From NCBI GenBank assembly GCA_964522615.1, contig CAZFWR010000001.1, positions 1 through 44,905 on the forward strand: a stretch of 44,905 nt of DNA, written 5' to 3'. Numbering within the stretch: the first letter of the stretch is position 1; each line of letters begins with the position of its first letter. Position numbers and translations under genes: made by a program. Below are positions 2,226 through 43,215 of this stretch, piece by piece. This DNA comes from an uncultured Candidatus Saccharibacteria bacterium (GTDB lineage Bacteria > Patescibacteriota > Minisyncoccia > Minisyncoccales > UBA1441). The notes under the pieces are model-generated. The model was not told the origin of the DNA. It saw only the letters and a program-made list of their open reading frames with translations, and made no database searches.

Positions 2226-3948
2226 CTTGAGAACAACTGCTTAATAATGTGTTGGCTTTCTCCCGCGTTCGGGGACCGAAAATCCCTGTCCCTTGAGTAA
2301 GCCCTAAGGGCTGAAGAATTTCTCCAGAGTACTTTTCCTGAAAACGTTTTACTGCCTCTTGGGTCAACGCTAGAAAATTACCCGTTACCAATCCCGCCGA
2401 ATAGATTTCCTCTCCCTGGGCCCGAAGGAAAACCTGTAAGGCCCTTACCTCTTCTTCTTCCCCCCGGCCGAAGGAAAGATTGTTTTCCCAAGGCTGCCAA
2501 ATCATTCCCTCCCGAGCTATTAAAAGACAAGCTAATTGAGCGCGCAAATCTTCAATCTGAACCTTTAATTGGCTGATAGTTTGCTGTAATTCTTCTTTCT
2601 TTCTTTCCTCAACCGCGGTTGGATTAGTGGTTACTTCCCAGAAAAAAGCATAAGGAGTTTCCCGGCCATTAAATCCGGAAACTTTGCTTTGGACAGAAGG
2701 AATAATGGTTAAAGAGTTAACCTCGGAACCGAAATTGGGAATTTCCAATCGGCCTTGCTGGCTAGTATCCAGCTCCAAGAAGACAGTATTAATTTCTCCG
2801 TTCTTCATTTCTAAGACATAAGGAAGCTGGAAAAGATTTTCCGAACTACCAATAAACCGCAAAGTTAAGTCCCCCTCCCCACCGATAAAACGAATCCACT
2901 TCCCGGCCCAATGTTTTGTCTGGTCGGTGGAAGAAAGACTACTTTTCCCGGTCAGAGGGAGAAAATAAGTTTTGGGCGTTACCCGAAGATTTTGGAGAGC
3001 GGAATCAAGATAACAATAGCGAGCATCAATCTGGCAATCATTAAGATAAGAAGCAATTGTCCAATCGGTAAAGACATCAGAAAAATTTGCCGCCCAATTA
3101 TTTTTTTCCAGGGCCTCATCTAAGGCGGCAATTCCCGTTTGAGAAGAATGGAGAGAATCAACCAAAATCTCTATTCCATAATGCTCTACCAGATATTGGG
3201 TAAAAATATTCAGGGCTCCGTAATCTGCCTGCTCTTCCTGCCATTCCACTAAAGAATCGTTAGGATAAGAGAGGAAAAGCTTTGCTCTTCGCTGTAAATT
3301 ACTTCCTTCATAAATTTGGTCATAGCCCAAAAGAGTGGGAGTATATTCTGCTCGGGCTTCATTTAGCCAGACCTCTTCTACCACCCTCATCTTCCTATTC
3401 TTCTGGTTATAGGTCAGAAGATGAGTTAATTCGTGAGCCAATAAGCTCCGGACATAATTACTCGGCAGATAATCAGCGTTCAAATAAATCATTTCTCGCT
3501 CGTTAGAACTCGGGCTTTGCAATTTCTCATGTTCATCAAGCGGCCGGAAATAACCGCCGCTTTCCTCTTGCAGAGGATGGAAAAGGATAGTCAGGCGCAA
3601 ATCATTATCTAGGCCCGGCTTCCATTCAGAACCATAAACAGAAGTTAAACCAGGATAAATTTTTTCGTCAAACTCCGCTCCTAAAGATTGTAAAAAAGTT
3701 TCATTCTTTTCCTGTTCCTCTGGGGAGAGCTCATTCTTCCACTCCTGGTCAACAATGAAGTAAGCATGCTGGGAGCGGTAGCTTAACTCGCCCAGAATTT
3801 CTTCCCTTCCCCTCTTGTCCATTGAAGAATCAACAAAAAAAGAAACCGCTTCTGGTTTCTCGGCAGCTAAAGCTGCGAAACTCGGCAGCCAAAGCCCCCA
3901 AATTCCTAAGATAAGAAAAAGAAAAATATTTTTCCGAAAATGTTTCAT
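2218..3948 (-). CDS. Secreted gluzincin-type metallopeptidase with C-terminal peptidoglycan-binding domain
   Basis: 576 aa. Signal peptide MKHFRKNIFLFLILGIWGLWLPSFAALAAE. LAHELTHLL (HEXXH) followed 20 residues later by VWLNEARAEY (the WLNE glutamate of MA(E)/M1-like peptidases). Coiled-coil segment ELQQTISQLKVQIEDLRAQL. C-terminal EVRALQVFL...GNFLALTQEAVKRFQ...GIFGPRT resembles PG_binding_1. Confidence 0.6.
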   Translation of the reverse strand: MKHFRKNIFLFLILGIWGLWLPSFAALAAEKPEAVSFFVDSSMDKRGREEILGELSYRSQHAYFIVDQEWKNELSPEEQEKNETFLQSLGAEFDEKIYPGLTSVYGSEWKPGLDNDLRLTILFHPLQEESGGYFRPLDEHEKLQSPSSNEREMIYLNADYLPSNYVRSLLAHELTHLLTYNQKNRKMRVVEEVWLNEARAEYTPTLLGYDQIYEGSNLQRRAKLFLSYPNDSLVEWQEEQADYGALNIFTQYLVEHYGIEILVDSLHSSQTGIAALDEALEKNNWAANFSDVFTDWTIASYLNDCQIDARYCYLDSALQNLRVTPKTYFLPLTGKSSLSSTDQTKHWAGKWIRFIGGEGDLTLRFIGSSENLFQLPYVLEMKNGEINTVFLELDTSQQGRLEIPNFGSEVNSLTIIPSVQSKVSGFNGRETPYAFFWEVTTNPTAVEERKKEELQQTISQLKVQIEDLRAQLACLLIAREGMIWQPWENNLSFGRGEEEEVRALQVFLRAQGEEIYSAGLVTGNFLALTQEAVKRFQEKYSGEILQPLGLTQGTGIFGPRTREKANTLLSSCSQDD

Positions 3949-3985: not shown

Positions 3986-4045
3986 CCATAATAATGTTAA
4001 TTCAACATAATAATGTTAAATTTAACATAATAATGCTAAATTCAA
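3986..4045. repeat. 3 x 20-bp tandem direct repeat (CATAATAATGTTAAATTCAA-like) upstream of the metallopeptidase gene
   Basis: Units at 3986-4005, 4006-4025 and 4026-4045, differing by 1-3 nt. They lie 38-97 nt upstream of the minus-strand ATG at 3948. On the minus strand each unit starts with TTGAAT/TTAAAT (-35-like). Confidence 0.8.
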
Positions 4046-4053
4046 CGAATTTT

Positions 4054-5005: not shown

Positions 5006-5464
5006 CTAGGCCTCTTTCTTCTTTTCCGAAGAAACCGCCGTTGCTTCTTCTCCCTGCTTCACTGCCTCCTCTTTCTTCTCTGCTGTCTTCTCTTTCTTCT
5101 CTGCTGTCTTCTCTTTTTTCTCTGCTGTCTCCTCTTTTTTCTCCTGGCCTTCAGAGGCTACCGCTTTCGAAGCCGTTACTGGTTCTTCCGGCTGACTCTT
5201 CTTTCGGGCATGAACAGCTTTTTTCTTCCCGGATAAAATTCCTTCATCAATAAGCCAGTTATAAACTCGGTCGGTTGGTTGAGCCCCAACTGATAACCAA
5301 TACTTAACTCTTTCCGCCTCTAATTTCCTTTCTTTTGTCAAAGGGTTCAGCCAGCCTAATTTTTCGAATCTTCCCCCTTGAGGAGGAGAATTTTTATCAA
5401 CAACGACCAACCTAAAAAAAGGCTGATTCTTTTTACCGATTCTTTGGAAGCGAATTCTTAACAT
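5006..5464 (-). CDS. rpsP: 30S ribosomal protein S16 with K/E-rich repetitive C-terminal extension
   Basis: MLRIRFQRIGKKNQPFFRLVVVD...YWLSVGAQPTDRV is canonical S16. About 60 extra C-terminal residues contain TAEKKEK x3. Confidence 0.9.
   Translation of the reverse strand: MLRIRFQRIGKKNQPFFRLVVVDKNSPPQGGRFEKLGWLNPLTKERKLEAERVKYWLSVGAQPTDRVYNWLIDEGILSGKKKAVHARKKSQPEEPVTASKAVASEGQEKKEETAEKKEKTAEKKEKTAEKKEEAVKQGEEATAVSSEKKKEA
5078..5140. repeat. 3 x 21-bp in-frame tandem repeat inside rpsP (encodes TAEKKEK x3)
   Basis: CTCTGCTGTCTTCTCTTTCTT-like units start at 5078, 5099 and 5120 (exact 21-nt period). Confidence 0.85.
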
Positions 5465-7640: not shown

Positions 7641-7657
7641 AAATGGTTTGTAAAATT

Positions 7658-7775
7658 CTGTAAACTGGATTATAATAATCCATAGGATTCTTAAAAGCCT
7701 GTAAACAGGATTATAATAACCCGTAGGGTTCTTAAAAGTCTGTAAACAGAATTATAATAATCCATAGGATTCTCC
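7658..7775. repeat. About 2.9 x 41-bp tandem repeat in the divergent rnhB / dnaE-operon intergenic region; each unit carries a TATAAT-containing palindrome
   Basis: CTGTAAAC anchors at 7658, 7699 and 7740 (exact 41-nt period). Each unit contains GGATTAT-A-ATAATCC (e.g. 7667-7681), which reads TATAAT on both strands, plus AATCC-ATA-GGATT. Confidence 0.85.
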
Positions 7776-7826: not shown

Positions 7827-8525
7827 ATGAAAGTAGCTCCTATTCAAACTGAACTTGATCCTCAAAAAGTCGTTGCTCAAGGAGCGATAGAAACAATAAT
7901 TAGAAAAGCTGAAGCTACTGGGCAGCCAGCCAATTTTTCTCACCGGATCATTCCCTCTGTCCATCTCACTAATCGAAAAATAGAAACTAGCCTCAATTTT
8001 CAGGGAGCTACTATTCTTGGTCCGGTTGCTTTCCGAGAAGTAGTTATCAACGGCGACCTCAATCTCCAGGAAACCATTATCAAAGGAGCCCTTTACCTGG
8101 AAGGAAGCATTATTCGGGGCTCTTTCAATCTCCAGCAAGCAGTGGTCCGGGGGGTTATTAATTTGGTCGGAGCCCAGATTAAAGGAAACCTTAACGGCCA
8201 ACAGTTGACCAATAGCGGTTTTATCAGCTTAGCTAAGGCTCAAATCGGAAAAAATCTAAACCTGCAGGGGATAAGGATTGAAGACGCTGATTACGAAGGA
8301 TTAATTATTCGGGGAAATCTTTATCTGCGCGGCATTATTCTCAATGGAGCCCTTCATCTGGAAAAAGCAAGCGTTAGCGGTTCGGTTGATCTCGTTCAGG
8401 CTTTAATTCTTGGAACAGCAGATCTGACCGGCATCTCTATTAAGGATTATCTTATTCTTCGCCAAGCTTCTCTAGAAAACGGGTTAGTGCTTGAAGGCGC
8501 TCGCTACCGGGAATTGGTAAAATGA
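7827..8525 (+). CDS. Pentapeptide-repeat protein
   Basis: 232 aa. From about residue 55 onward there are continuous 5-residue repeats (NFQGA TILGP VAFRE VVING DLNLQ ETIIK GALYL EGSII RGSFN LQQAV ...). The stop overlaps the dnaE start (ATGA at 8522-8525). Confidence 0.7.
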   Translation: MKVAPIQTELDPQKVVAQGAIETIIRKAEATGQPANFSHRIIPSVHLTNRKIETSLNFQGATILGPVAFREVVINGDLNLQETIIKGALYLEGSIIRGSFNLQQAVVRGVINLVGAQIKGNLNGQQLTNSGFISLAKAQIGKNLNLQGIRIEDADYEGLIIRGNLYLRGIILNGALHLEKASVSGSVDLVQALILGTADLTGISIKDYLILRQASLENGLVLEGARYRELVK

Positions 8526-18167: not shown

Positions 18168-18181
18168 AACTGATAAGATAT

Positions 18182-18225
18182 ATTCTAAGAAGATATATAT
18201 GTTCTGACAATATATGTTCTGACAA
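18182..18225 (-). promoter_or_regulatory. 2 x 15-bp direct repeat (TATATGTTCTGACAA) containing a promoter-like TTGTCA-17-TAGAAT
   Basis: Units at 18196-18210 and 18211-18225. Minus strand TTGTCA (18210-18205), a 17-nt spacer, TAGAAT (18187-18182), then 14 nt to the ATG at 18167. Confidence 0.3.
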
Positions 18226-18232
18226 TATAAGT

Positions 18233-18817
18233 TTAAATTTCCAGGCGGACAAATTCTCCAATTTTTATTTTTTCCCCTAATTTAGAAATTGTTTCTTCTA
18301 ATAATTGAGCGATCGTTTTCTCTGAATCTTTTACCCAAGGCTGTTTCAAAAGAACCACCTCTTTCTGCCATTTATTCAACCTTCCGGCCATAATCTGTTC
18401 CAACGCTTCTTTGGGCTTATCTGCTTTACTCAAGGCCTCTTGATAGATTTCTTTCTCTTTTTCTATCACCTCGGTTGGAATATCTTCTTCTTGAAGATAA
18501 AGCGGAGACATAGCAGCAATTTGTAAACAGACCTCGTGAGCTAATTTCTGAAATTCATCAGAACGAGCAACAAAATCGGTCTCACAATGAAGACTAACCA
18601 TTACTCCCAGCCGATGGTTGGCGTGAAGATAGGTTTCTACCAGTCCAGCCTTTGTCTCCCGACCAGCCCTTTTTTGGGCGATTTCCTGCCCAGTTTTTCG
18701 AAGAACTTCTTTCGCCTTCTCTAAATCACCATCTGTTTCCTCTAAAGCCTTCTTACACTGCGCTAAAGAAATCCCTGTTTCTTCTCTTAATTGTTTAATT
18801 TGTCCAATGGTAACCAT
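18233..18817 (-). CDS. tsf: Elongation factor Ts (short form)
   Basis: 194 aa. UBA-like N-terminus IKQLREETGISLAQCKKALEETDGDLEKAKEVLRK. Confidence 0.9.
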   Translation of the reverse strand: MVTIGQIKQLREETGISLAQCKKALEETDGDLEKAKEVLRKTGQEIAQKRAGRETKAGLVETYLHANHRLGVMVSLHCETDFVARSDEFQKLAHEVCLQIAAMSPLYLQEEDIPTEVIEKEKEIYQEALSKADKPKEALEQIMAGRLNKWQKEVVLLKQPWVKDSEKTIAQLLEETISKLGEKIKIGEFVRLEI

Positions 18818-19996: not shown

Positions 19997-20157
19997 TCTT
20001 CATTTCACCTCCTCTCTCTTCAAAGAGCATTGATATTATTACATTACAGCACATATCTAAAAAGATGCAAGGATTCGAATTGGGTCAAAGTGAAATAACT
20101 TGAATACGGCGAAAGGCTTGTTTTTTTTAAAAAGTTTGTTATCTTTAATTATTCATT

Positions 20158-20379
20158 ATGAAAGACAAAATTCATCCAAAATACTATTCCGAAGCAAAAG
20201 TTTCTTGCAACTGCGGGAATACTTTTACTGTCGGCTCTACCAAGCCAGAAATCCATACCGAAATTTGTTTCCAGTGCCACCCTTTCTACACTGGCCAGGA
20301 AAAAATCATAGACCGCCAGGGACAAGTCCAGAAATTTAAGGAAAGACTGGCTAAAAAGGGAAAGAAGGGTTCAAAATGA
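20158..20379 (+). CDS. rpmE: 50S ribosomal protein L31 (Cys4 zinc form)
   Basis: MKDKIHPKYY...CNCGNTF...CFQCHPFYTGQ is canonical L31. Confidence 0.9.
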   Translation: MKDKIHPKYYSEAKVSCNCGNTFTVGSTKPEIHTEICFQCHPFYTGQEKIIDRQGQVQKFKERLAKKGKKGSK

Positions 20380-21134
20380 TTGACCCTCATCAGGTAATTA
20401 TTGAAATTCGAGCAGGAGCTGGCGGCGAAGAAGCCGCCCTTTTTGCTCGGGACCTTTTTTTTGCCTACCAACGTTTCGCTCGGCAGAAATTATGGAAAGA
20501 AAAAATCCTTGACCTTCATCTAACCAATATTGGAGGTTATAAGAAAGTGGTTGTTCTTTTTCAGGGAGAAAATGCTTGGCCGATGATGCAATACGAAGGA
20601 GGAATCCATCGAGTCCAGCGTGTCCCGAAAACAGAAAAGGACGGGCGAATTCACACTTCTACCGTTAGTGTTGCCGTTCTTCCAGAAGACAAAGACCAGA
20701 AAATCCAATTTAACCCGGCAGATTTGAAGGTTACCTTCTGTAAATCGTCTGGGCCAGGAGGGCAAAATGTAAATAAAAGACAAACGGCTGTTCGGATTGT
20801 TCATCTTCCCTCGCAATTAACCGTCAGTTGCCAAAGTGAACGAGACCAGTTAAGAAATCGGGAAAACGCCCTTAAAATTCTCCGGGCCAAACTTTTACAA
20901 TCCCGCCAAGAGGAAAAATCCCAAACAACCGGACAATTAAGAAAAGACCAAGTTGGACAGGCTGAAAGAGCCCAAAAAATTAGAACTTACAATTTTCAGA
21001 GAAATCAACTTAAAGACCACCGTCTAAAAAAATCGTGGTCTAATCTTGAAGAAATAATGGCCAAAGGAGAATGGGGATCGCTCGTCAAACAGTTGCAGAA
21101 AAAGTTTACCCCACCTCCTTCTCCCCGGGAGTAG
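20376..21134 (+). CDS. prfA: Peptide chain release factor 1-like protein lacking the N-terminal domain 1
   Basis: 252 aa. Begins at the domain 2 segment VIIEIRAGAGGEEAALFARDLF. RF1-type codon-recognition motif QRVPKTEKDGRIHTS (PxT). GGQ motif SSGPGGQNVNK. The start overlaps the rpmE stop (ATGA). Confidence 0.85.
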   Translation: MIDPHQVIIEIRAGAGGEEAALFARDLFFAYQRFARQKLWKEKILDLHLTNIGGYKKVVVLFQGENAWPMMQYEGGIHRVQRVPKTEKDGRIHTSTVSVAVLPEDKDQKIQFNPADLKVTFCKSSGPGGQNVNKRQTAVRIVHLPSQLTVSCQSERDQLRNRENALKILRAKLLQSRQEEKSQTTGQLRKDQVGQAERAQKIRTYNFQRNQLKDHRLKKSWSNLEEIMAKGEWGSLVKQLQKKFTPPPSPRE

Positions 21135-29495: not shown

Positions 29496-30476
29496 TTAAT
29501 CTTTTCTAAGCTGAAGATGAAACTTTTTCAATCCCTGCTCTATTTCCTTTACCCCCTTTTCCCCCAAACCTTCCAAAGCTAAAAGTTTTTCTCGACTCTT
29601 GGCAACCAACCCCGCTACTGTCTTGAAATGGCCGTCTAGAAGAACCTTTTTTAGCCTCGGAGACCAGTCTAGGTCCTCAATCTTGGAGTTTTTTCCTACC
29701 ACCAGTTTTTTCTTCTTCTGGGGTTTTCCCTTCTTCTGGAGTTTTTCTTTTTTCTGGGACTTTTCTTTTTTCTCCGAAACTATTTTTTCTTCCTCCTGGA
29801 GATAGTTTCCAAAAATAGCTAGATGCTCTTGCAAAATTGCTATCGCCTGGCTTAAAGCTTCACTAGGAGAAATAGTCCCGTCAGTAGCAATTCCCAAAAG
29901 CAAGCGGTCAAAGTCCGTTCGTTTGCCAACCCTCATCTTTTCTGCTTGGTAAAAAACTTTTTCTACTGGAGAAAAGAGACTGTCTATAAGAATTTCTCCG
30001 ATCGCCGCCTTCTCCTCTTCCCTTTGCTCCACTGATTGATAGCCAACTCCTTTTTCAATCCTTAATCTTCCAACCAGTTTTGCTTTCTGGCTCGTAAGAG
30101 TAGCTAATCTTTGTTCCGGATTGGTAATTTTTACTTGGGAAGGAAGAGAAAGATCTTTTCCGCAGGATTCTTTCTTTCCCTTAATTTCGAAATGCCCTTC
30201 CTGCGGCTCATCGCTAGTAACTTTAAATCTTAACTTTTTAAAATTAAGAATAATCTGGACAACGTCTTCTTGAATTCCCGGTATAGTAGAAAATTCATGA
30301 GGAACGCCTTCAATTTGCAAGCTAGTTACAGCGGCTCCTTCCAGGGAAGAAAGGAGAATTCTCCGCAGAGTATTCCCCAAAGTTGCCCCGTAACCGGGAT
30401 AAAGCCCTTCTATTTCGAAAGTGGCCTGATGACCTTCTTGAGAAATAATTTTAATGGATTGAGGTAAAGGTATCAT
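29496..30476 (-). CDS. rpoA: DNA-directed RNA polymerase alpha subunit with K-rich repeat linker
   Basis: NTD (GYGATLGNTLRRILLSS) and CTD HhH (IEDLDWSPRLKKVLLDGHFKTVAGL). The start is taken at MIPLPQ (30476), 4 nt after the rpsD stop; the ORF track extends to 30500. Confidence 0.9.
   Translation of the reverse strand: MIPLPQSIKIISQEGHQATFEIEGLYPGYGATLGNTLRRILLSSLEGAAVTSLQIEGVPHEFSTIPGIQEDVVQIILNFKKLRFKVTSDEPQEGHFEIKGKKESCGKDLSLPSQVKITNPEQRLATLTSQKAKLVGRLRIEKGVGYQSVEQREEEKAAIGEILIDSLFSPVEKVFYQAEKMRVGKRTDFDRLLLGIATDGTISPSEALSQAIAILQEHLAIFGNYLQEEEKIVSEKKEKSQKKEKLQKKGKPQKKKKLVVGKNSKIEDLDWSPRLKKVLLDGHFKTVAGLVAKSREKLLALEGLGEKGVKEIEQGLKKFHLQLRKD
29716..29769. repeat. 3 x 18-bp in-frame tandem repeat in the rpoA NTD-CTD linker (KSQKKE KLQKKG KPQKKK)
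   Basis: TTCTGG anchors at 29716, 29734 and 29752 (exact 18-nt period). Confidence 0.8.
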
Positions 30477-30480
30477 AATA

Positions 30481-31104
30481 TCAACGAGAATAAAATTCAA
30501 AAATAGTAAGAATATTAGCCGGGGGATTAACTTCTTCTAAAGTTGGCCAACGTAAAATCCCTCCTTCTAACCCTTGGGGGTTAATCTCCAACCAAGTAGA
30601 ACCTTCCTTTTTCTTCAGCCTTTCCCCTACTTCTTGGAAAAGAGCCATTTTCTTGCTCTTTTCTCTCACCGCTATTTTAACCCCCGGTTTCAGCTGATAG
30701 GAAGGCCGGTCAACTTTTTTTCCATTAACCAAGAAATGCCCGTGGCTGACCAATTGTCTCGCCCGTCCCCGAGAATCAGCCAACCCCAGCCGGTAAACAA
30801 TATTATCCAGCCGACCTTCTAATTCCTGGATGAGAAACTGGTCTCGGTTTCCTTGGGAGGGACGCCTTAAAGCTTTATCAATATAACGGTGGAACTGTTT
30901 TTCTTTCAAGCCGTAAAAAAATCTCAGCTTTTGCTTTTCGGCTAACTGACGTCCGTATTCAGAAACCTTTCTTCTTCTTTTATCATTCCTTCTTGTATTA
31001 GAAGATTTTCGCGCCAATGGACACTTAGCCGTAAAACACTTATCTCCTTTCAAGAAGAGTTTTTGGTCAAAGCGCCGACAAATTTTACACTGGTTATTTC
31101 TCAT
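30481..31104 (-). CDS. rpsD: 30S ribosomal protein S4 (zinc-finger form)
   Basis: 207 aa. CKICRR...CFTAKCP; YGLKEKQ; S4 RNA-binding domain RLDNIVYRLGLADSRGRARQLVSHGHFLVNGKKV. Confidence 0.95.
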   Translation of the reverse strand: MRNNQCKICRRFDQKLFLKGDKCFTAKCPLARKSSNTRRNDKRRRKVSEYGRQLAEKQKLRFFYGLKEKQFHRYIDKALRRPSQGNRDQFLIQELEGRLDNIVYRLGLADSRGRARQLVSHGHFLVNGKKVDRPSYQLKPGVKIAVREKSKKMALFQEVGERLKKKEGSTWLEINPQGLEGGILRWPTLEEVNPPANILTIFEFYSR

Positions 31105-31108
31105 ACTA

Positions 31109-31204
31109 ATTGCTATTAAGAGGCTTTCTTAAGACTCATAATCGCTATTAAGAGGCTTTCTTAAGACTCATAATCGCTATTAAGAGGCTTTCCTAAGACT
31201 CATA
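31109..31204. repeat. 3 x 32-bp tandem repeat filling the rpsK-rpsD junction; each unit is a 7-codon mini-ORF
   Basis: Units at 31109-31140, 31141-31172 and 31173-31204, with one substitution each in units 1 and 3. Minus-strand unit: TATGAGTCTTAAGAAAGCCTCTTAATAGCGAT. Confidence 0.9.
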
Positions 31205-31208
31205 ATTT

Positions 31209-31661
31209 TTAGACCCTTCTTGGCCGAGGAGGCCGAACCCCACCATGAGGAAAAGGAGTTCTATCTTTAATACTATCCATTTCTACTCCCCGAGCCCCTA
31301 AAGACCTGACAGCCGATTCTCGCCCCTTGCCCATTCCCTTGATGATAACTTCAACTCTGCTAATCTTCAGATTTTGGATAACATCCGCTATCGCTTCCGC
31401 TACCTTAGAAGCGGCATAAGAAGTCGCTTTTTTCGTTCCTTTAAAACCGATGTTCCCGGCAGTCTTCATTGCCAAAACATTGCCTTGGGAATCACAAAGG
31501 GAAATCCGGGTATTATTATAAGAAGAGTTAATATAGATAACCGCTTTTTCTATTCCCGCCTTAAACTTAACCGTCTGGCTCTTACCCATTGCCTTCTCCA
31601 CTTCCCGCCCTTCTTTCAGAACTTCTTCCGTTGTTTTTTTAATTACTTTTTTCTTCCCCAT
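31209..31661 (-). CDS. rpsK: 30S ribosomal protein S11
   Basis: IYINSSYNNTRISLCDSQGNVL...GFKGTKKATSYAA...RPPRPRRV. The start is taken at MGKKKV, 4 nt after the rpsM stop; the ORF track extends to 31718. Confidence 0.9.
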   Translation of the reverse strand: MGKKKVIKKTTEEVLKEGREVEKAMGKSQTVKFKAGIEKAVIYINSSYNNTRISLCDSQGNVLAMKTAGNIGFKGTKKATSYAASKVAEAIADVIQNLKISRVEVIIKGMGKGRESAVRSLGARGVEMDSIKDRTPFPHGGVRPPRPRRV

Positions 31662-32057: not shown

Positions 32058-32101
32058 TTATCCTTGTCTTTGTTTATATTTTTATCCTTGTCTTTGTTTA
32101 T
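32058..32101. repeat. Perfect 20-bp duplication (24-bp period) of the rpmJ 3' end including its stop codon
   Basis: TTATCCTTGTCTTTGTTTAT at 32058-32077 and at 32082-32101. On the minus strand this reads ATAAACAAAGACAAGGATAA twice. Confidence 0.9.
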
Positions 32102-32195
32102 GTTTCGGATTCTTGCAAATAACATAGATCCGCCCTTTCCGCCGAACTATTTTACAGTCTTTGCACATTTTTTTTACTGAAGAGCGAACTTTCAT
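32082..32195 (-). CDS. rpmJ: 50S ribosomal protein L36
   Basis: Below the ORF-track cutoff. The minus strand gives [37 protein letters not shown], canonical L36. Confidence 0.9.
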
Positions 32196-38371: not shown

Positions 38372-39117
38372 AATAAAGTTGTTAAAATTTGCGGTCCCTG
38401 GGAAGTAACAGCTATCATCTGTTCAAAATGAGCAGTGAGAGAACCGTCAACCGAACGATAACTGAAGCCATCTTCTCCCAGTTCAATTTCGGTAGAACCA
38501 AGACTAACAATTGGCTCGATACAAATAACCAAACCGGGCTGAATTATCAAACCTTCGCCCTTCTTCCCAAAATTAAAAACGGTGGGGTCTTCGTGTAATT
38601 CTCGGCCGATGCCATGGCCGGTTAACTCCTTCACCACTCCCATGCCCTGCTGGACAACATAATCTTCAACGGCAAAACCAATATCTCCTAAATGATTGCC
38701 GGTCCGAGCGGCTTTTATTCCCCAATAAAGAGCTTCTCGGGTAACCGTTATTAATTTCTGGGTTAAAGGAGGAATGGGCCCCACTCCAATAGTAGTCGCT
38801 ATATCCGCCTGGAATCCTCTATACTCTAAGCCTAAATCAAGAGAAAGAATATCACCGGATTGTAATTGATATTCTCCCGGCAATTGATGGACAGCCACTT
38901 CATTTACTGATGTACATAAAGCAGCTGGAAATCCTTCATAATTTTTAAAATTCGGCTTTCCGCCTTCAACAGTAATTAATTTCTCGGCTAATTGGTCTAA
39001 TTCTTTGGTCTTCATCCCCGCTTTAACTTCATTCTGAAGTTTCTTCAAAATGCGAGCCAGCTTCCTTCCTGCTTCCCCCATCTTCCTTATTTCTTTTTCG
39101 CTCTTCAGCTGAATCAT
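38368..39117 (-). CDS. map: Methionine aminopeptidase type I
   Basis: 249 aa. Metal ligands in SLDLG..., GHGIG and CIEP contexts. Confidence 0.95.
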   Translation of the reverse strand: MIQLKSEKEIRKMGEAGRKLARILKKLQNEVKAGMKTKELDQLAEKLITVEGGKPNFKNYEGFPAALCTSVNEVAVHQLPGEYQLQSGDILSLDLGLEYRGFQADIATTIGVGPIPPLTQKLITVTREALYWGIKAARTGNHLGDIGFAVEDYVVQQGMGVVKELTGHGIGRELHEDPTVFNFGKKGEGLIIQPGLVICIEPIVSLGSTEIELGEDGFSYRSVDGSLTAHFEQMIAVTSQGPQILTTLL

Positions 39118-39704
39118 TCTAATTTCAAGGCTTTAACCAGGGCTTGATAAACATCCTTAATCGGAGGAAGGGCGTCAATTTCAATTAATAACCCCCGCCG
39201 GCGATAATCTTCAATAACAGGCAGAGTCTGCTTTCGGAACCAAGTCCATTTTTGATTTAAAGCAGTCAGAGTATCATCCTTTCTTTTTCTCCCTTCTTTT
39301 GCCAAGACACGTTTTTTGGATTCTCCATAATCAATATTAAAATAAACGACTCGGTATTGATTCATCCAGTCGTACCAGTCAAGCCCGGAATCAATAAGGC
39401 GAACCTCAAAAGGAGCGCGGGGGCTACCGTCAATAATCAAACCTGAAAATGGAGAAAAATTTTTCACTCTCTCCATTTCTTCTTCCCAAAGATCAGCCAC
39501 TACCAAACTGGAAACCAGCCTCCCTTCTTTTAGGCATTCCTTTACTTTCTTTCCTGTAAAATCAATTTTTTTAGCCCTTTGGCGCAGCAAATCTCCACTC
39601 CCAATATAGGCAAAACCAAATTTCTCTATCAACCGCCTGGATTGGGTTCCCTTTCCGCCGCCGGAAGGCCCTAAAAAACTTAAAACAAGACTAGAAGCTT
39701 TCAT
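39114..39704 (-). CDS. adk: Adenylate kinase
   Basis: P-loop FLGPSGGGKGTQ; GSGDLLR. The start is taken at MKASSL (39704). The ORF-track N-terminal 19 codons are read through the 32-bp repeats and overlap secY. Confidence 0.85.
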   Translation of the reverse strand: MKASSLVLSFLGPSGGGKGTQSRRLIEKFGFAYIGSGDLLRQRAKKIDFTGKKVKECLKEGRLVSSLVVADLWEEEMERVKNFSPFSGLIIDGSPRAPFEVRLIDSGLDWYDWMNQYRVVYFNIDYGESKKRVLAKEGRKRKDDTLTALNQKWTWFRKQTLPVIEDYRRRGLLIEIDALPPIKDVYQALVKALKLE

Positions 39705-39705
39705 A

Positions 39706-39769
39706 ATTACTATTAAGAGGCTTTCTGAAGACTCATAATTACTATTAAGAGGATTTACCAAGACTCATA
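39706..39769. repeat. 2 x 32-bp tandem repeat of the same family as 31109-31204, spanning the secY stop and abutting the adk start
   Basis: Units at 39706-39737 (3 mismatches to the 31-kb unit) and 39738-39769 (about 6 mismatches). The secY TAA (39755-39757) lies inside unit 2. Confidence 0.85.
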
Positions 39770-41032
39770 TTCTCTAACTTTCATTTGGGCTTTGATCTGC
39801 CGCATTGTTTCCAAAACGACGCTCACCATAATTAAGAGAGCCGTCCCCCCGATTAAGAAAGCAAAACCGGTGAGTCCGGTGGTCCCCTGGATAAGAGAAG
39901 GCATCACGGCCACCAAACCGAGAAAAATGGCGCCGACAAATAAACAACGGTAGAGAATGGATTTTAATTGTTGGGTAGTGGGCTTTCCTGGCCGAATACC
40001 TGGAATAAATCCTCCTGCTTTTTGAAGATTATCGGCTATCTTTTCCGGATCAAAAGTAACTTGAGTATAGAAAAAGGCAAAACCAACCACTAAAAGAAAA
40101 TAAGCAACGTTATAAAACCAAGGATTAGCTAAAAAAGCATTAAGACTATTGGTAATCGAGGCTCCCCAACTGCCCCAATTAGCCACTACCTGACCAGCCA
40201 TCTGGGGAAACATCAGTAGAGCTAGGGCAAAAATAATGGGCATTACTCCAGCCGGATTCAAGGGAATAGGAAGATAGGTAGAAGTCCCGCCATACATTCG
40301 GGATCCCCGCACCCTCTTGGTGTAAGAAACTGGAACATTACGGCGAGCTTCATTCACTAAAACCACCAGAGCTATCATCACTAAAGCGATAACGAAAAAG
40401 AGAAAATAGGAACCGAGATGGGAAACATCCCAGCCTACCAACATCTGATTCAGATAAACCGGGGTTCGGGCTACAATTCCAGCAAAAATCAACAAAGAAA
40501 CACCGTTGCCGATGCCCTGCTCGGTAATCAGCTCTCCCAGCCACATCAGTAAAAGGGCTCCGGCCGTAACTGTTGCTAAATAAGCAACCAGCATCGAAGT
40601 AGAAAAAGCGCTAATCACTCCCTGGTGCTGAAGCAAGCTTAACATCGCATATCCCTGTAAAACAGCCAGAGGAGCCGTCAACCACCGTCCATACTGATTG
40701 AATTTCTTCTTACCCGCTTCTCCTTCTTCTTTGTAAAGCTTTTCCAAAGCAGGAAAAATCATTGTTGCCAGTTGAAGGGCAATGACAGCGGTAATATAAG
40801 GACCCAGGCCCAGCATCACTACCGAAAACTGGGAAAGGGCTCCGCCGCTGAAGACATTCAGCAGACCGAGCATTTGACTTTGACTGAAAAATTCTTCTAG
40901 TTGAGTTGTGTCCACTCCTGGAACGGGAATATTAGCCAAAAGCCGAAAACAAGCCATAACCGCTAAAACAAAAATTATCTTTTTCCGGAGAGCTTTGTTT
41001 TTCCAAAGATTAATAAGAGTTTGCCCAAACAT
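39755..41032 (-). CDS. secY: Preprotein translocase subunit SecY
   Basis: 425 aa, 10-TM pattern. LGLGPYITAVIALQL and GIGNGVSLLIFAGI motifs. Confidence 0.95.
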   Translation of the reverse strand: MFGQTLINLWKNKALRKKIIFVLAVMACFRLLANIPVPGVDTTQLEEFFSQSQMLGLLNVFSGGALSQFSVVMLGLGPYITAVIALQLATMIFPALEKLYKEEGEAGKKKFNQYGRWLTAPLAVLQGYAMLSLLQHQGVISAFSTSMLVAYLATVTAGALLLMWLGELITEQGIGNGVSLLIFAGIVARTPVYLNQMLVGWDVSHLGSYFLFFVIALVMIALVVLVNEARRNVPVSYTKRVRGSRMYGGTSTYLPIPLNPAGVMPIIFALALLMFPQMAGQVVANWGSWGASITNSLNAFLANPWFYNVAYFLLVVGFAFFYTQVTFDPEKIADNLQKAGGFIPGIRPGKPTTQQLKSILYRCLFVGAIFLGLVAVMPSLIQGTTGLTGFAFLIGGTALLIMVSVVLETMRQIKAQMKVREYESW

Positions 41033-41035
41033 AAT

Positions 41036-41470
41036 TTATTTTTTAATCTTGCCTCCTACTTTCTCTACTTTTTCCCGAGCCGCTTGAGAAAGGCGGCAGT
41101 TCTCAAAAGTTAAGGCTTCCTTTACTTCTCCAGAAGACAAAATCTTCACTATCTTTTTCTTTCCCGAAGGGAAAGAAAGAAGCCCTTTTTCCTTTAAAGT
41201 TTGGGGGTTAACTACCTCCCCGGTAGTGAACTTCTTGACCACCTCCTTTAGTTGAAGAGCGGTCGTCTCCTTACAAGAAGAACGAAAGCCGATTCCTTTC
41301 AATTTCGGATAACGCTTAATCAAAGGACGAATTGAAGGTTCAAAATTTGCCCCCGATCGGGATTTTTGGCCTTTAATCCCCCGGCCGGAGTAAGTTCCTT
41401 TTTTACCTCCTCGACCGACACGTTTTTTAGTCGGACGAGATTGCTTGGATTTTATCTGATTTAGCTGCAT
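41036..41470 (-). CDS. rplO: 50S ribosomal protein L15
   Basis: MQLNQIKSKQSRPTKKRVGRGGKKGTYSGRGIKGQKSR. Confidence 0.9.
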   Translation of the reverse strand: MQLNQIKSKQSRPTKKRVGRGGKKGTYSGRGIKGQKSRSGANFEPSIRPLIKRYPKLKGIGFRSSCKETTALQLKEVVKKFTTGEVVNPQTLKEKGLLSFPSGKKKIVKILSSGEVKEALTFENCRLSQAAREKVEKVGGKIKK

Positions 41471-41921
41471 AGTCTTTTAATTGTTGAAAAGCATCAAGAG
41501 TTGCCCGGGCGATATTCAAGCTGTTTTTAGAACGAGAAAGGACTTTGGCCGAAAGAGATTCCACCCCGGCCAATTGGCAGAGGACTCGGACCGTTGCTCC
41601 CGCTGACAAACCCCCTCCGGCCTTAGGCCGAAAAAGAATCCGGGAAGCCCCTGCTTTGCCAGTCACGGAACAGGAAATCGTTCCCTTATTTATAGGAACA
41701 ACAAAGAGGGTCTTTTCTGCCAGCCGCTTTGCTTTGCTAATCGCTTCCCGAACACTAAGGCCTTTCGCCACTCCTAGGCCCACCCGGCCTTTTTGGTCAC
41801 CGACAACCACCACTGCCCGAAATCTTAGCCGCCTTCCCCCCGCCGCTACTCGAGTCACCCGGTTTAAGTCCAAAACGTGAGATTCCAACTCATTGACATT
41901 TTTAGTTCTTGGTTTCATCAA
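41427..41921 (-). CDS. rpsE: 30S ribosomal protein S5
   Basis: VLDLNRVTRVAAGGRRLRFRAVVVVGDQKGRVGLGVAK... The 3' end overlaps rplO by 44 nt. No rpmD (L30) in between. Confidence 0.9.
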   Translation of the reverse strand: MMKPRTKNVNELESHVLDLNRVTRVAAGGRRLRFRAVVVVGDQKGRVGLGVAKGLSVREAISKAKRLAEKTLFVVPINKGTISCSVTGKAGASRILFRPKAGGGLSAGATVRVLCQLAGVESLSAKVLSRSKNSLNIARATLDAFQQLKDYAAKSDKIQAISSD

Positions 41922-42831: not shown

Positions 42832-43215
42832 TTACCAAACTCTCATAATTACTTCTCCTCCCGAGACCTTTCTTTTCGCTTCGTCCCCTGACAACAAGCC
42901 AAGAGGGGTAGAAAGAATCAGCAGGCCCTTATCTCTTCTAATGTCCCGAGGGGAAAGATAAAGACGGCGGCCAGGTTTAGAAATTCTCTTAAAACCAGTG
43001 ATAGCTGGCTGGTCATCAAAATACTGGAGAACTAATCCTAACCTGGCTTTCGCCCCCAATCCTCTTTTCTTCACCTCCCGCAAATAATTATTGTTCTTGA
43101 GCATTTTCGCCAGGGTTAATTTCATTTTGGAAAATGGCAACCAAACCACCGGCTGCTTGACTGCCTGGGCATTCAGAATCTGATTGAGCATATCGCTTAA
43201 GGGATCGTTAACCAT
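42832..43215 (-). CDS. rpsH: 30S ribosomal protein S8
   Basis: MVNDPLSDMLNQILNA... canonical S8. Confidence 0.95.
   Translation of the reverse strand: MVNDPLSDMLNQILNAQAVKQPVVWLPFSKMKLTLAKMLKNNNYLREVKKRGLGAKARLGLVLQYFDDQPAITGFKRISKPGRRLYLSPRDIRRDKGLLILSTPLGLLSGDEAKRKVSGGEVIMRVW

Follow-up and report, generated by a model that had tools for sequence, protein, structure and literature searches.

Mycobacterial interspersed repetitive units (MIRUs) are apparently mobile elements that "insert themselves at start codons" and contain an internal open reading frame (ORF) coupled at -4 spacing (PMC12548453). They are 40–100 bp in size and present in 40–50 copies, with empty and filled sites that have tetranucleotide direct repeats (PMC3184786). 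They also contain internal inverted repeats, and the ends of their ORFs overlap the adjacent genes (PMC3184786). A 2025 review of translational coupling regards this arrangement as one that "likely" minimizes the impact on expression (PMC12548453). The original description (Supply et al., 1997) is used here as summarized in these two sources. A second type of start-proximal repeat, the TAACTGA heptamer direct repeats, is found in Beggiatoaceae, Cyanobacteria, and Bacteroidetes (MacGregor, 2015; PMC4679880), and proposals for it include a role in regulation as well as an origin from mobile DNA (PMC4679880). Here, we describe a 32-nucleotide (nt) repeat unit in a contig of an uncultured Candidatus Saccharibacteria bacterium (CAZFWR010000001.1, assembly GCA_964522615.1; 44,905 nt, hereafter the window), in which two units separate secY from adk and three others separate rpsK from rpsD. 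Very probably, these units belong to a dispersed, derived repeat that is associated with start codons. The best reading, drawn by analogy, is a MIRU-like minisatellite of one lineage of the candidate phyla radiation (CPR; Patescibacteria type) that may represent a functional analogue of MIRUs.

The likeness to MIRUs involves several features. The units are short, lie head-to-tail inside operons at many loci, occur at start codons, and appear to vary in copy number. Many contain a small gene-oriented ORF, the start of which overlaps the stop codon of the upstream gene in some arrays; the units also have an imperfect internal inverted repeat, and the sites are found in empty and filled states with short direct repeats. 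However, the unit is shorter (32 nt, against about 40–100 bp for MIRUs), has a G+C content of 25–30%, and resides in a CPR host with a genome that is essentially free of Shine-Dalgarno sequences. The mini-ORF also differs, because its stop codon lies 8 nt before the next ATG instead of forming a 4-nt overlap, and a third of the units lack the ATG. Given the 25–30% G+C, sequence homology to the MIRU consensus is unlikely, and the comparison is based on descriptions of MIRUs. Like the TAACTGA repeats, the units are arranged in tandem within a few nt of starts that lack a Shine-Dalgarno sequence and occur in ribosomal protein operons (S4, L3, and S1 for TAACTGA). Unlike the unit, those repeats have 7 nt, contain no ATG, dyad, or tail, and come from other phyla; the sequence of the unit is unrelated and does not include TAACTGA. 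The units also resemble repetitive extragenic palindromic (REP) sequences and bacterial interspersed mosaic elements (BIMEs) in being very small (REP, 21–65 nt), dispersed, imperfect palindromes in transcribed intergenic regions that are conserved within a lineage. In contrast to the head-to-tail arrays at starts, REPs are G+C-rich, are usually located 3' of genes, and often form inverted pairs. No REP-associated tyrosine transposase (RAYT; Y1 transposase) was found among the 30 of approximately 50 window ORFs that were scanned. Our literature search for comparable repeats in CPR, Patescibacteria, or Saccharibacteria was negative, although a text search cannot prove absence.

All genes around the secY/adk junction are on the minus strand. 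Read in the coding direction, the junction consists of AAA GTT AGA GAA T, the two units ATGAGTCTTGGTAAATCCTCTTAATAGTAATT and ATGAGTCTTCAGAAAGCCTCTTAATAGTAATT, and then ATGAAAGCTTCTAGTCTT, with adk starting as ATGAAAGCTTCT. The features of this array and of its sister array are as follows.

39737–39768, minus strand: unit 1 of the secY/adk array (53.4 bits), which provides the last three codons and the stop codon of secY (GAG TCT TGG TAA)
39705–39736, minus strand: unit 2 of the secY/adk array (50.6 bits), with a complete 7-codon mini-ORF (MSLQKAS)
39755–39757, minus strand: secY stop codon (TAA), within unit 1 at unit positions 12–14
39702–39704, minus strand: adk start codon, directly after unit 2 and in the phase of a third unit
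39114–39704, minus strand: adk coding sequence (196 aa)
39755–41032, minus strand: secY coding sequence, ending with GAA TAT GAG TCT TGG TAA
39749–39766, minus strand: imperfect dyad or putative hairpin of unit 1 (unit positions 3–20, GAGTCTT GGTA AATCCTC), with the variable triplet in the loop; the fold is weak (-0.8 kcal/mol), and the dyad is supported by covariation in the family, not by fold energy
39717–39734, minus strand: imperfect dyad or putative hairpin of unit 2 (GAGTCTT CAGA AAGCCTC; -2.8 kcal/mol)
39705–39716, minus strand: A/T-rich tail (TTAATAGTAATT) that abuts the adk ATG, with an invariant TAA and a terminal AATT
31108–31203, minus strand: sister array of three units, between the rpsK stop codon (31209–31211) and the rpsD ATG (31104–31102; offset +3)

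A preliminary description of this locus, made from the sequence alone, had placed the two units at 39706–39769, which is one base off the phase of the ATG (39705–39768). Its account of the junction was otherwise reproduced. A direct comparison with the central rpsK/rpsD unit gave the same numbers of mismatches (three for unit 2 and six for unit 1), the stop codon of secY (39757–39755) lies inside unit 1, the two mini-ORFs read MSLGKSS and MSLQKAS, and the adk ATG has the phase of a third unit. The distance between the TAA of the unit 2 mini-ORF and this ATG is 8 nt. Chance similarity does not explain these repeats, as a 32-mer search allowing up to three mismatches returned four matches, compared with 0.00 expected from 100 shuffles. 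Tandem Repeats Finder (TRF) reported a period of 32 at both the secY/adk and rpsK/rpsD junctions, and the units were also recovered as a direct-repeat family (D1). When the 45-kb window was searched with a covariance model (R1), these five units and no others were detected, the next match being at E = 0.78. Moreover, three independent assemblies (L122, L123, and L124) share the secY/adk array. The preliminary description had also judged the 215-aa adk ORF, which begins at TTG 39761, to be an artefact. The alignments confirm that this model results from read-through across the repeats, because the Adk proteins of relatives align from ATG 39704 over 196 aa (with the P-loop then at residues 11–19) and a gene call made independently on another assembly of the same sequence places the adk start at 39704.

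Comparisons with relatives provide the main evidence for a derived origin of the array. Syntenic loci were obtained through Adk homologues, and their DNA identities to the window are 78% (L125), 72% (L127), and 69% (L002/L129). None of these loci has a unit between secY and adk; instead, the two genes overlap by 14 nt (GAATATGAAAGCTTCTAA; context AGAGAATATGAAAGCTTCTAAT). SecY ends with EYESF* in these relatives without the insertion, compared with EYESW* in the window. In the window, in a second assembly (L122), and in a 93%-identical relative (L123/L124), two units precede an unchanged ATGAAAGCTTCT. At the level of sequence, the secY/adk array is a precise derived insertion of 64 nt between GAAT and the native adk ATG, because the unit-free relatives (69–78% identical) have the 14-nt secY/adk overlap. 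As a result of this insertion, SecY reads into unit 1 and ends with EYESW*. The proposal that the 5' end of adk was itself built from unit segments was ruled out, since the relatives with empty sites carry an identical ATGAAAGCTTCT; this native start is unchanged in three relatives that lack the unit at this junction. Likewise, the AGTCTT that follows ATGAAAGCTTCT, which had been read as another unit segment, is absent even from the 93%-identical relative L123.

Similar differences among relatives are found at other junctions. The rpsK/rpsD junction is empty in L127/L128, where GTC TAA AATT (GTCTAAAATT) is followed by ATGAGAGAT. It has one unit in L125, two in L006, and three in the window, and a degenerate copy is present in L007/L129. 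For infA/rpmJ, rnc/rpsP, and rplX/rplE, units are present in a relative and absent in the window. The array boundaries nearly always have ..ATT before and ATG(A) after the array, which correspond to the end and the start of the unit itself, and thus the insertion lies between short direct repeats, a feature that MIRUs are reported to have as well.

For the distribution of the unit, species-representative genomes were scanned with an exact pattern and metagenome contigs with a looser pattern, followed by the covariance model R1. The exact-pattern scan found the unit in two metagenome-assembled genomes (MAGs) labelled uncultured Candidatus Saccharibacteria. The genome and metagenome scans together with the covariance model yielded 20 arrays in approximately 18 gene contexts. 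The genes downstream include rpsD, adk, rpoC, rpmJ, trmD, rpsP, rpsG, rplE, rplV, and yebC, as well as tRNA-synthetase-like, lipoprotein, membrane protein, and other genes. With those of the window excluded, ribosomal protein genes are downstream in 6 of approximately 17 contexts. The arrays are head-to-tail and located in intergenic regions between co-oriented operon genes, and the downstream gene has the orientation of the array in all 20 cases. Sixteen arrays directly adjoin the start codon (offset 0), and the remaining four have offsets of +1, +3, +3, and +8. In six of the 20 arrays, the stop codon of the upstream gene is the TGA or TAA at unit positions 2–4 (within the ATGA or ATAA of the first unit), a pattern that fits the expectation if an ATGA stop/start overlap was the target. 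In L042, two units are found on opposite strands 2 kb apart, each in the orientation of its own gene; therefore, the orientation tracks the gene rather than the direction of replication. A search of both strands in 253 kb of unit-bearing loci revealed no unit within a gene or distant from a start, so the position and orientation relative to genes that had been proposed for the units hold throughout this collection.

These patterns bear on the simplest explanation, in which each junction acquired its repeats through purely local and neutral duplication by replication slippage, with no dispersal or common origin. Junction duplications do occur in this lineage, as exemplified by the 3' end of rpmJ, which is present twice in the window and approximately 16 times in L129. 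Yet this 32-nt sequence is found at approximately 18 unrelated junctions across species, which already contradicts this explanation, and the empty sites have only ..ATT and ATG(A) in common with the unit. The probability of purely local slippage is accordingly close to nil, in agreement with the preliminary description, which had argued against simple slippage products.

The units are highly conserved in sequence and variable in occurrence. Between the window and L123, the array has no differences in 64 nt, compared with approximately 7% in the flanks (197/2632; P of about 0.01 at 7% divergence). The conservation of the unit consensus is at least approximately 90% across genomes whose ribosomal protein operons are only 69–78% identical, and the differences are almost only in the loop. 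At the same time, unit sites have been gained and lost between relatives, and individual contigs show 4, 3, or 1 units at rnc/rpsP and 2 or 1 units at rpsK/rpsD, with flanks that agree at 100% of the compared bases (400 nt per side, except for L017 with only 32 nt downstream). Such a combination of conservation and turnover is typical of elements that are kept similar by a recognizing machinery, either for spread or for a host function. Because the consensus is this conserved among such divergent genomes, a trans-acting machinery may recognize the unit, for spreading or for a function in RNA or DNA.

The same conservation, including the 0/64 differences in the array, is also in line with a cis-regulatory site at which the ribosome, an RNA-binding protein, or a dimeric DNA-binding protein acts in trans and co-regulates translation and transcription genes. 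Tandem copies would then allow the factor to bind cooperatively, a role that has been proposed for the TAACTGA repeats of Beggiatoaceae, which provide a precedent beside starts without Shine-Dalgarno sequences within ribosomal protein operons. Other points for such a site are the dyad symmetry with some compensatory changes, the enrichment before ribosomal protein, rpoC, trmD, tRNA-synthetase, and yebC genes, and a 32-bp period that would be near three helical turns. However, the presence or absence of the unit varies among close relatives at the essential adk, rpmJ, rpsP, and rplE genes, and between 1 and 4 copies are found where the flanks are identical. Moreover, a DNA operator does not need the exact phase of the ATG, and neither an Rfam match nor a factor was identified. 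We therefore regard a dedicated regulatory site of this type as unlikely.

The consensus unit starts with ATG(A) at positions 1–4, followed by an imperfect dyad at positions 3–20 with a 4-nt loop, a TAA at positions 22–24, and an A/T-rich tail that ends with AATT. It contains stop codons in all three frames (TGA at 2–4, TAG TAA at 9–14, and TAA TAG TAA at 22–30), and unit 2 at secY/adk is without the middle set (positions 9–14). The preliminary description had proposed that the units form a conserved mini-cistron. The underlying pattern is seen throughout the window, where each of the five units reads ATG...TAA TAG, with MSLxK(A/S)S as the encoded peptide, but it does not hold for the family as a whole. 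Among 33 distinct units, the first codon is ATG in 21, ATA in five, AGG in five, GTA in one, and AGA in one, such that 12 units have lost the ATG; these include gene-adjacent units (L026, L061, L073, and L095) and sole units (L010 and the plus-strand unit of L042). The first stop codon fared better, with TAA found in 33/33 distinct units (a single 31-nt unit needs its gap set beside the TAA for this count), whereas the second stop codon (TAG) is altered in 12/33. The TAA at 22–24 is embedded in an invariant TTAA. The variation gives no sign of selection on the mini-peptide: the minor-allele counts in codons 2–7 are 24, 31, and 23 at codon positions 1, 2, and 3, with no excess at the third position, and divergent units encode unrelated peptides (MRIHKSS and MRTSRFI). 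Across the 33 distinct units, neither the conserved peptide nor the codon-level constraint of a leader peptide or upstream ORF was found. Peptide selection is thus not supported, and translation of the mini-ORF does not appear to be a conserved requirement, although it may occur where the ATG is intact. On sequence grounds, the conserved features are a better fit to a nucleic-acid element than to a conserved mini-peptide.

These results also weigh on the possibility of a functional mini-cistron relay, which is how MIRUs are usually interpreted and in which the 7-codon ORF is translated, ribosomes stop at its TAA, and re-initiation takes place 8 nt further on, thereby coupling adk to secY. The retention of the ATG and stop codon in all five window units, the ATGA-type overlap of the upstream stop codon with the first unit in 6/20 arrays, the invariant TAA at 22–24, and the precedent of MIRUs all speak for it. 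A second repeat family in L129 also begins with ATG, and its 38-nt form has a mini-ORF stop codon that overlaps the next ATG. Against it are the 12/33 distinct units without ATG, with gene-adjacent and sole units among them, the lack of codon-position bias, the unrelated peptides of divergent units, and a C20-to-T change that accompanies the G3-to-A change. Furthermore, the TAA lies in the longer invariant TTAA and need not have been kept as a stop codon. On balance, such a relay seems improbable. A comparable principle is known from the synthetic bicistronic design (cited in PMC12548453), where a short upstream ORF ending by the real start could deliver ribosomes independently of the upstream sequence. 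Unlike the unit, with its 8-nt gap, absence of a Shine-Dalgarno sequence, and unconserved ATG, that design is engineered, carries a Shine-Dalgarno sequence in the leader ORF, and has overlapping stop and start codons.

In the dyad, positions 3–9 (GAGTCTT) pair with positions 14–20 (AAGCCTC or AATCCTC), and positions 10–13 form the loop. The variable "codon 4" of the mini-ORF corresponds to this loop, and positions 16 and 17, which are variable too, are partners in an internal mismatch. In a model-based alignment of 31 distinct units, which was fitted to the structure, 77% of the cells are paired and changes on both sides are found in 4/7 pairs (12 cells). The covariation score of the dyad was reached by 0/500 shuffles, and every slid control was lower. 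Some divergent units have better stems, perfect or nearly so, such as GAAGATC-AGTA-GATCTTC in L023 (-9.8 kcal/mol) and GAACC-AGTA-GGTTC in L095 (-6.2 kcal/mol). The change of G3 to A, which removes the ATG, is paired with a change of C20 to T in 6/7 units, and this association fits pairing or a shared subfamily origin over selection on the start codon. Overall, the sequences give moderate support to a dyad in the unit, which may act in the form of RNA or single-stranded DNA or may be a palindrome to which a protein binds. A stable RNA structure of whole arrays was considered and rejected, as the folding z-scores (+2.16, -0.85, and -0.53) indicate no greater stability than in shuffles. A search against Rfam 15 returned only a tRNA elsewhere in the window at the gathering score, with only chance-level matches in the array region. 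For sigma-70 promoters (-35/-10 with 16–18 nt spacing), neither array has a coding-strand site, and the total equals the shuffle expectation. The boxA antitermination motif (GCTCTTTAACAA) matches GCCTCTTAATAG at 7/12 ungapped positions and is a weak lead only.

The start codons of the window have a characteristic context into which the unit fits. A Shine-Dalgarno-like 4-mer at 4–13 nt upstream was found in 3/47 window genes, compared with 16% at random positions. The 15 nt before the start codons are 75–85% A+T, with A, A, T, and T preferred at positions -4 to -1. The tail of the unit ends in this AATT pre-start consensus, and therefore insertion of a unit before an ATG recreates a normal start context. 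No convincing solo tails were found elsewhere in the window. One may also consider the unit as an unstructured and accessible leader that serves as an mRNA insulator or a translational enhancer. The match between the tail and the A/T-rich start context would suit such a role, as would the observation that the secY/adk array folds worse than 200/200 shuffles (z = +2.16). Nonetheless, the other arrays fold like their own shuffles, and opening of the start region does not require less energy in filled orthologous sites than in empty ones (8.2–9.9 vs 6.5–8.0 kcal/mol for adk, and 5.5–6.5 vs 3.5 kcal/mol for rpsD). An accessible leader is consequently quite improbable.

Returning to the MIRU-like repeat, a mechanism by which it could persist may be outlined. 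The generic start context without a Shine-Dalgarno sequence at the end of the unit, together with the start codon duplicated at the boundary, would leave the downstream start region intact. The three-frame stop codons of the consensus unit would close any upstream frame; in the present case, secY terminates in unit 1. With an intact downstream start and closed upstream frames, the element would be tolerated in essential operons and co-transcribed with them. Arrays may then grow and shrink through slippage or unequal recombination, and the 7-codon mini-ORFs with an intact ATG may be translated and could pass ribosomes to the next ATG. As a whole, this tolerated-cassette mechanism is moderately favored.

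Several points weigh against this interpretation. No mobilizing enzyme was found, as the Pfam scan of 30 of approximately 50 window ORFs revealed no transposase. Strong conservation across species and the enrichment of ribosomal protein genes fit a host function no less well than a selfish element that is tolerated. Most units have hairpin energies of 0 to -3 kcal/mol and do not fold better than shuffles, no consensus structure is predicted by RNAalifold, and the A3/T20 covariation may be one inherited subfamily change rather than repeated compensation. The copy-number differences could be explained by collapse in short-read assemblies. Finally, the pattern used for the metagenomes needed near-consensus units, such that the conservation of seed units is partly a matter of ascertainment.

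Other start-proximal repeats are present in this lineage. A second dispersed family with units of 38 or 43 nt, composed of ATGAAAATC, an optional TCTCC, and AAGGAGATTTACGAAAATCAAATAGATTT, has an ATG-dyad-tail-ATG layout, and in the 38-nt form the TGA of the mini-ORF overlaps the next ATG. This family is found in L129 (234–386, 4201–4267, 5090–5118, and 7639–7850) as well as in L130, L131, L095, and L010, at the rplC/rplD, rplP/rpmC, rplN/rplX, and rplR/rpsE junctions, and it is absent from the window. In the window (32058–32105, minus strand), a 24-nt tandem duplication (two copies) comprises the last codons and the stop codon of rpmJ (AAACAAAGACAAGGATAA) and abuts the ATG of rpsM. At the same rpmJ/rpsM junction, a 19-nt piece from the 3' end of rpmJ is repeated approximately 16 times in L129 (16301–16606; 306 nt). 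In the unit-rich relative L129–L131, these additional repeats belong to the same ribosomal protein operon, as does a 9-nt repeat before rplQ. Repeats close to start codons are thus a general trait of the lineage, and the 32-nt unit is its most dispersed family.

If the MIRU-like reading is correct, repeats of this type that settle at start codons would not be limited to mycobacteria; a CPR lineage with minimal genomes and almost no Shine-Dalgarno initiation would have them as well, in another design. The unit would represent a complete and transplantable start context, and its copies would be a natural experiment that could show what suffices for initiation and re-initiation in such organisms. 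That the unit is more conserved across species than ribosomal protein genes points to a recognizing machinery. A further alternative, which we consider doubtful, is a portable translation-restart and processing module that is used by a host without Shine-Dalgarno sequences, with a conserved trans-acting factor (an RNA-binding protein or the ribosome itself) recognizing the dyad plus the UUAAUAGUAAUU tail. The ribosomal protein genes, rpoC, adk, trmD, and others would then form one post-transcriptional regulon with expression tuned by copy number, and the ATG-dyad-tail-ATG layout shared by the second, unrelated family would reflect convergent use of one design principle. In practical terms, the arrays could serve as strain markers similar to variable number tandem repeats (VNTRs) for these uncultured bacteria. 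For annotation, the units can extend gene models falsely at the N-terminus, as in the 215-aa version of adk, and change real C-termini, such as the W for F in SecY.

One additional sequence in the window was considered as a possible degenerate unit or as the sequence from which the unit arose. The 3' end of rpsH (GTAATTATGAGAGTTTGGTAAAT; 42838–42860, minus strand; ...VIMRVW*) resembles a junction followed by the start of a unit. The resemblance is probably a coincidence because the covariance model gives no score and the sequence encodes the native C-terminus of S8.

Several tandem repeats with other sequences are also found in the window. Three 41-nt copies, each with the palindrome GGATTATTATAATCC, are located at 7651–7773 in the divergent intergenic region shared with a gene at 7827, and end 10 nt before the GTG of rnhB (7640). 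Three 20-nt copies (TTGAATTTAACATTATTATG, minus strand) at 3987–4046 follow a terminator-like hairpin and precede the ATG at 3948 by 39 nt. At 18178–18233, tandem repeats of 15 and 19 nt (ATATATTGTCAGAAC on the minus strand) separate tsf from an 81-aa ORF, which is followed by a tRNA gene. In-frame tandem repeats inside coding sequences include 21-nt repeats at 5062–5143, in a C-terminal extension of S16, and 18-nt repeats at 29705–29773, in the ORF at 29496–30500.

With regard to gene content, a release-factor-like ORF of 252 aa is present at 20376–21134 (plus strand). The PCRF profile matched this ORF only from position 98, with the N-terminal part uncovered, and its ATG overlaps the stop codon of an L31-like ORF at about 20150–20380 (plus strand) that is absent from the ORF list. 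The window contains a gene for L32 (6713–6988), though Saccharibacteria are said usually to lack L32. At 41036–41921, rpsE is directly followed by rplO without rpmD (L30), as reported for all CPR bacteria (PMC9297842).

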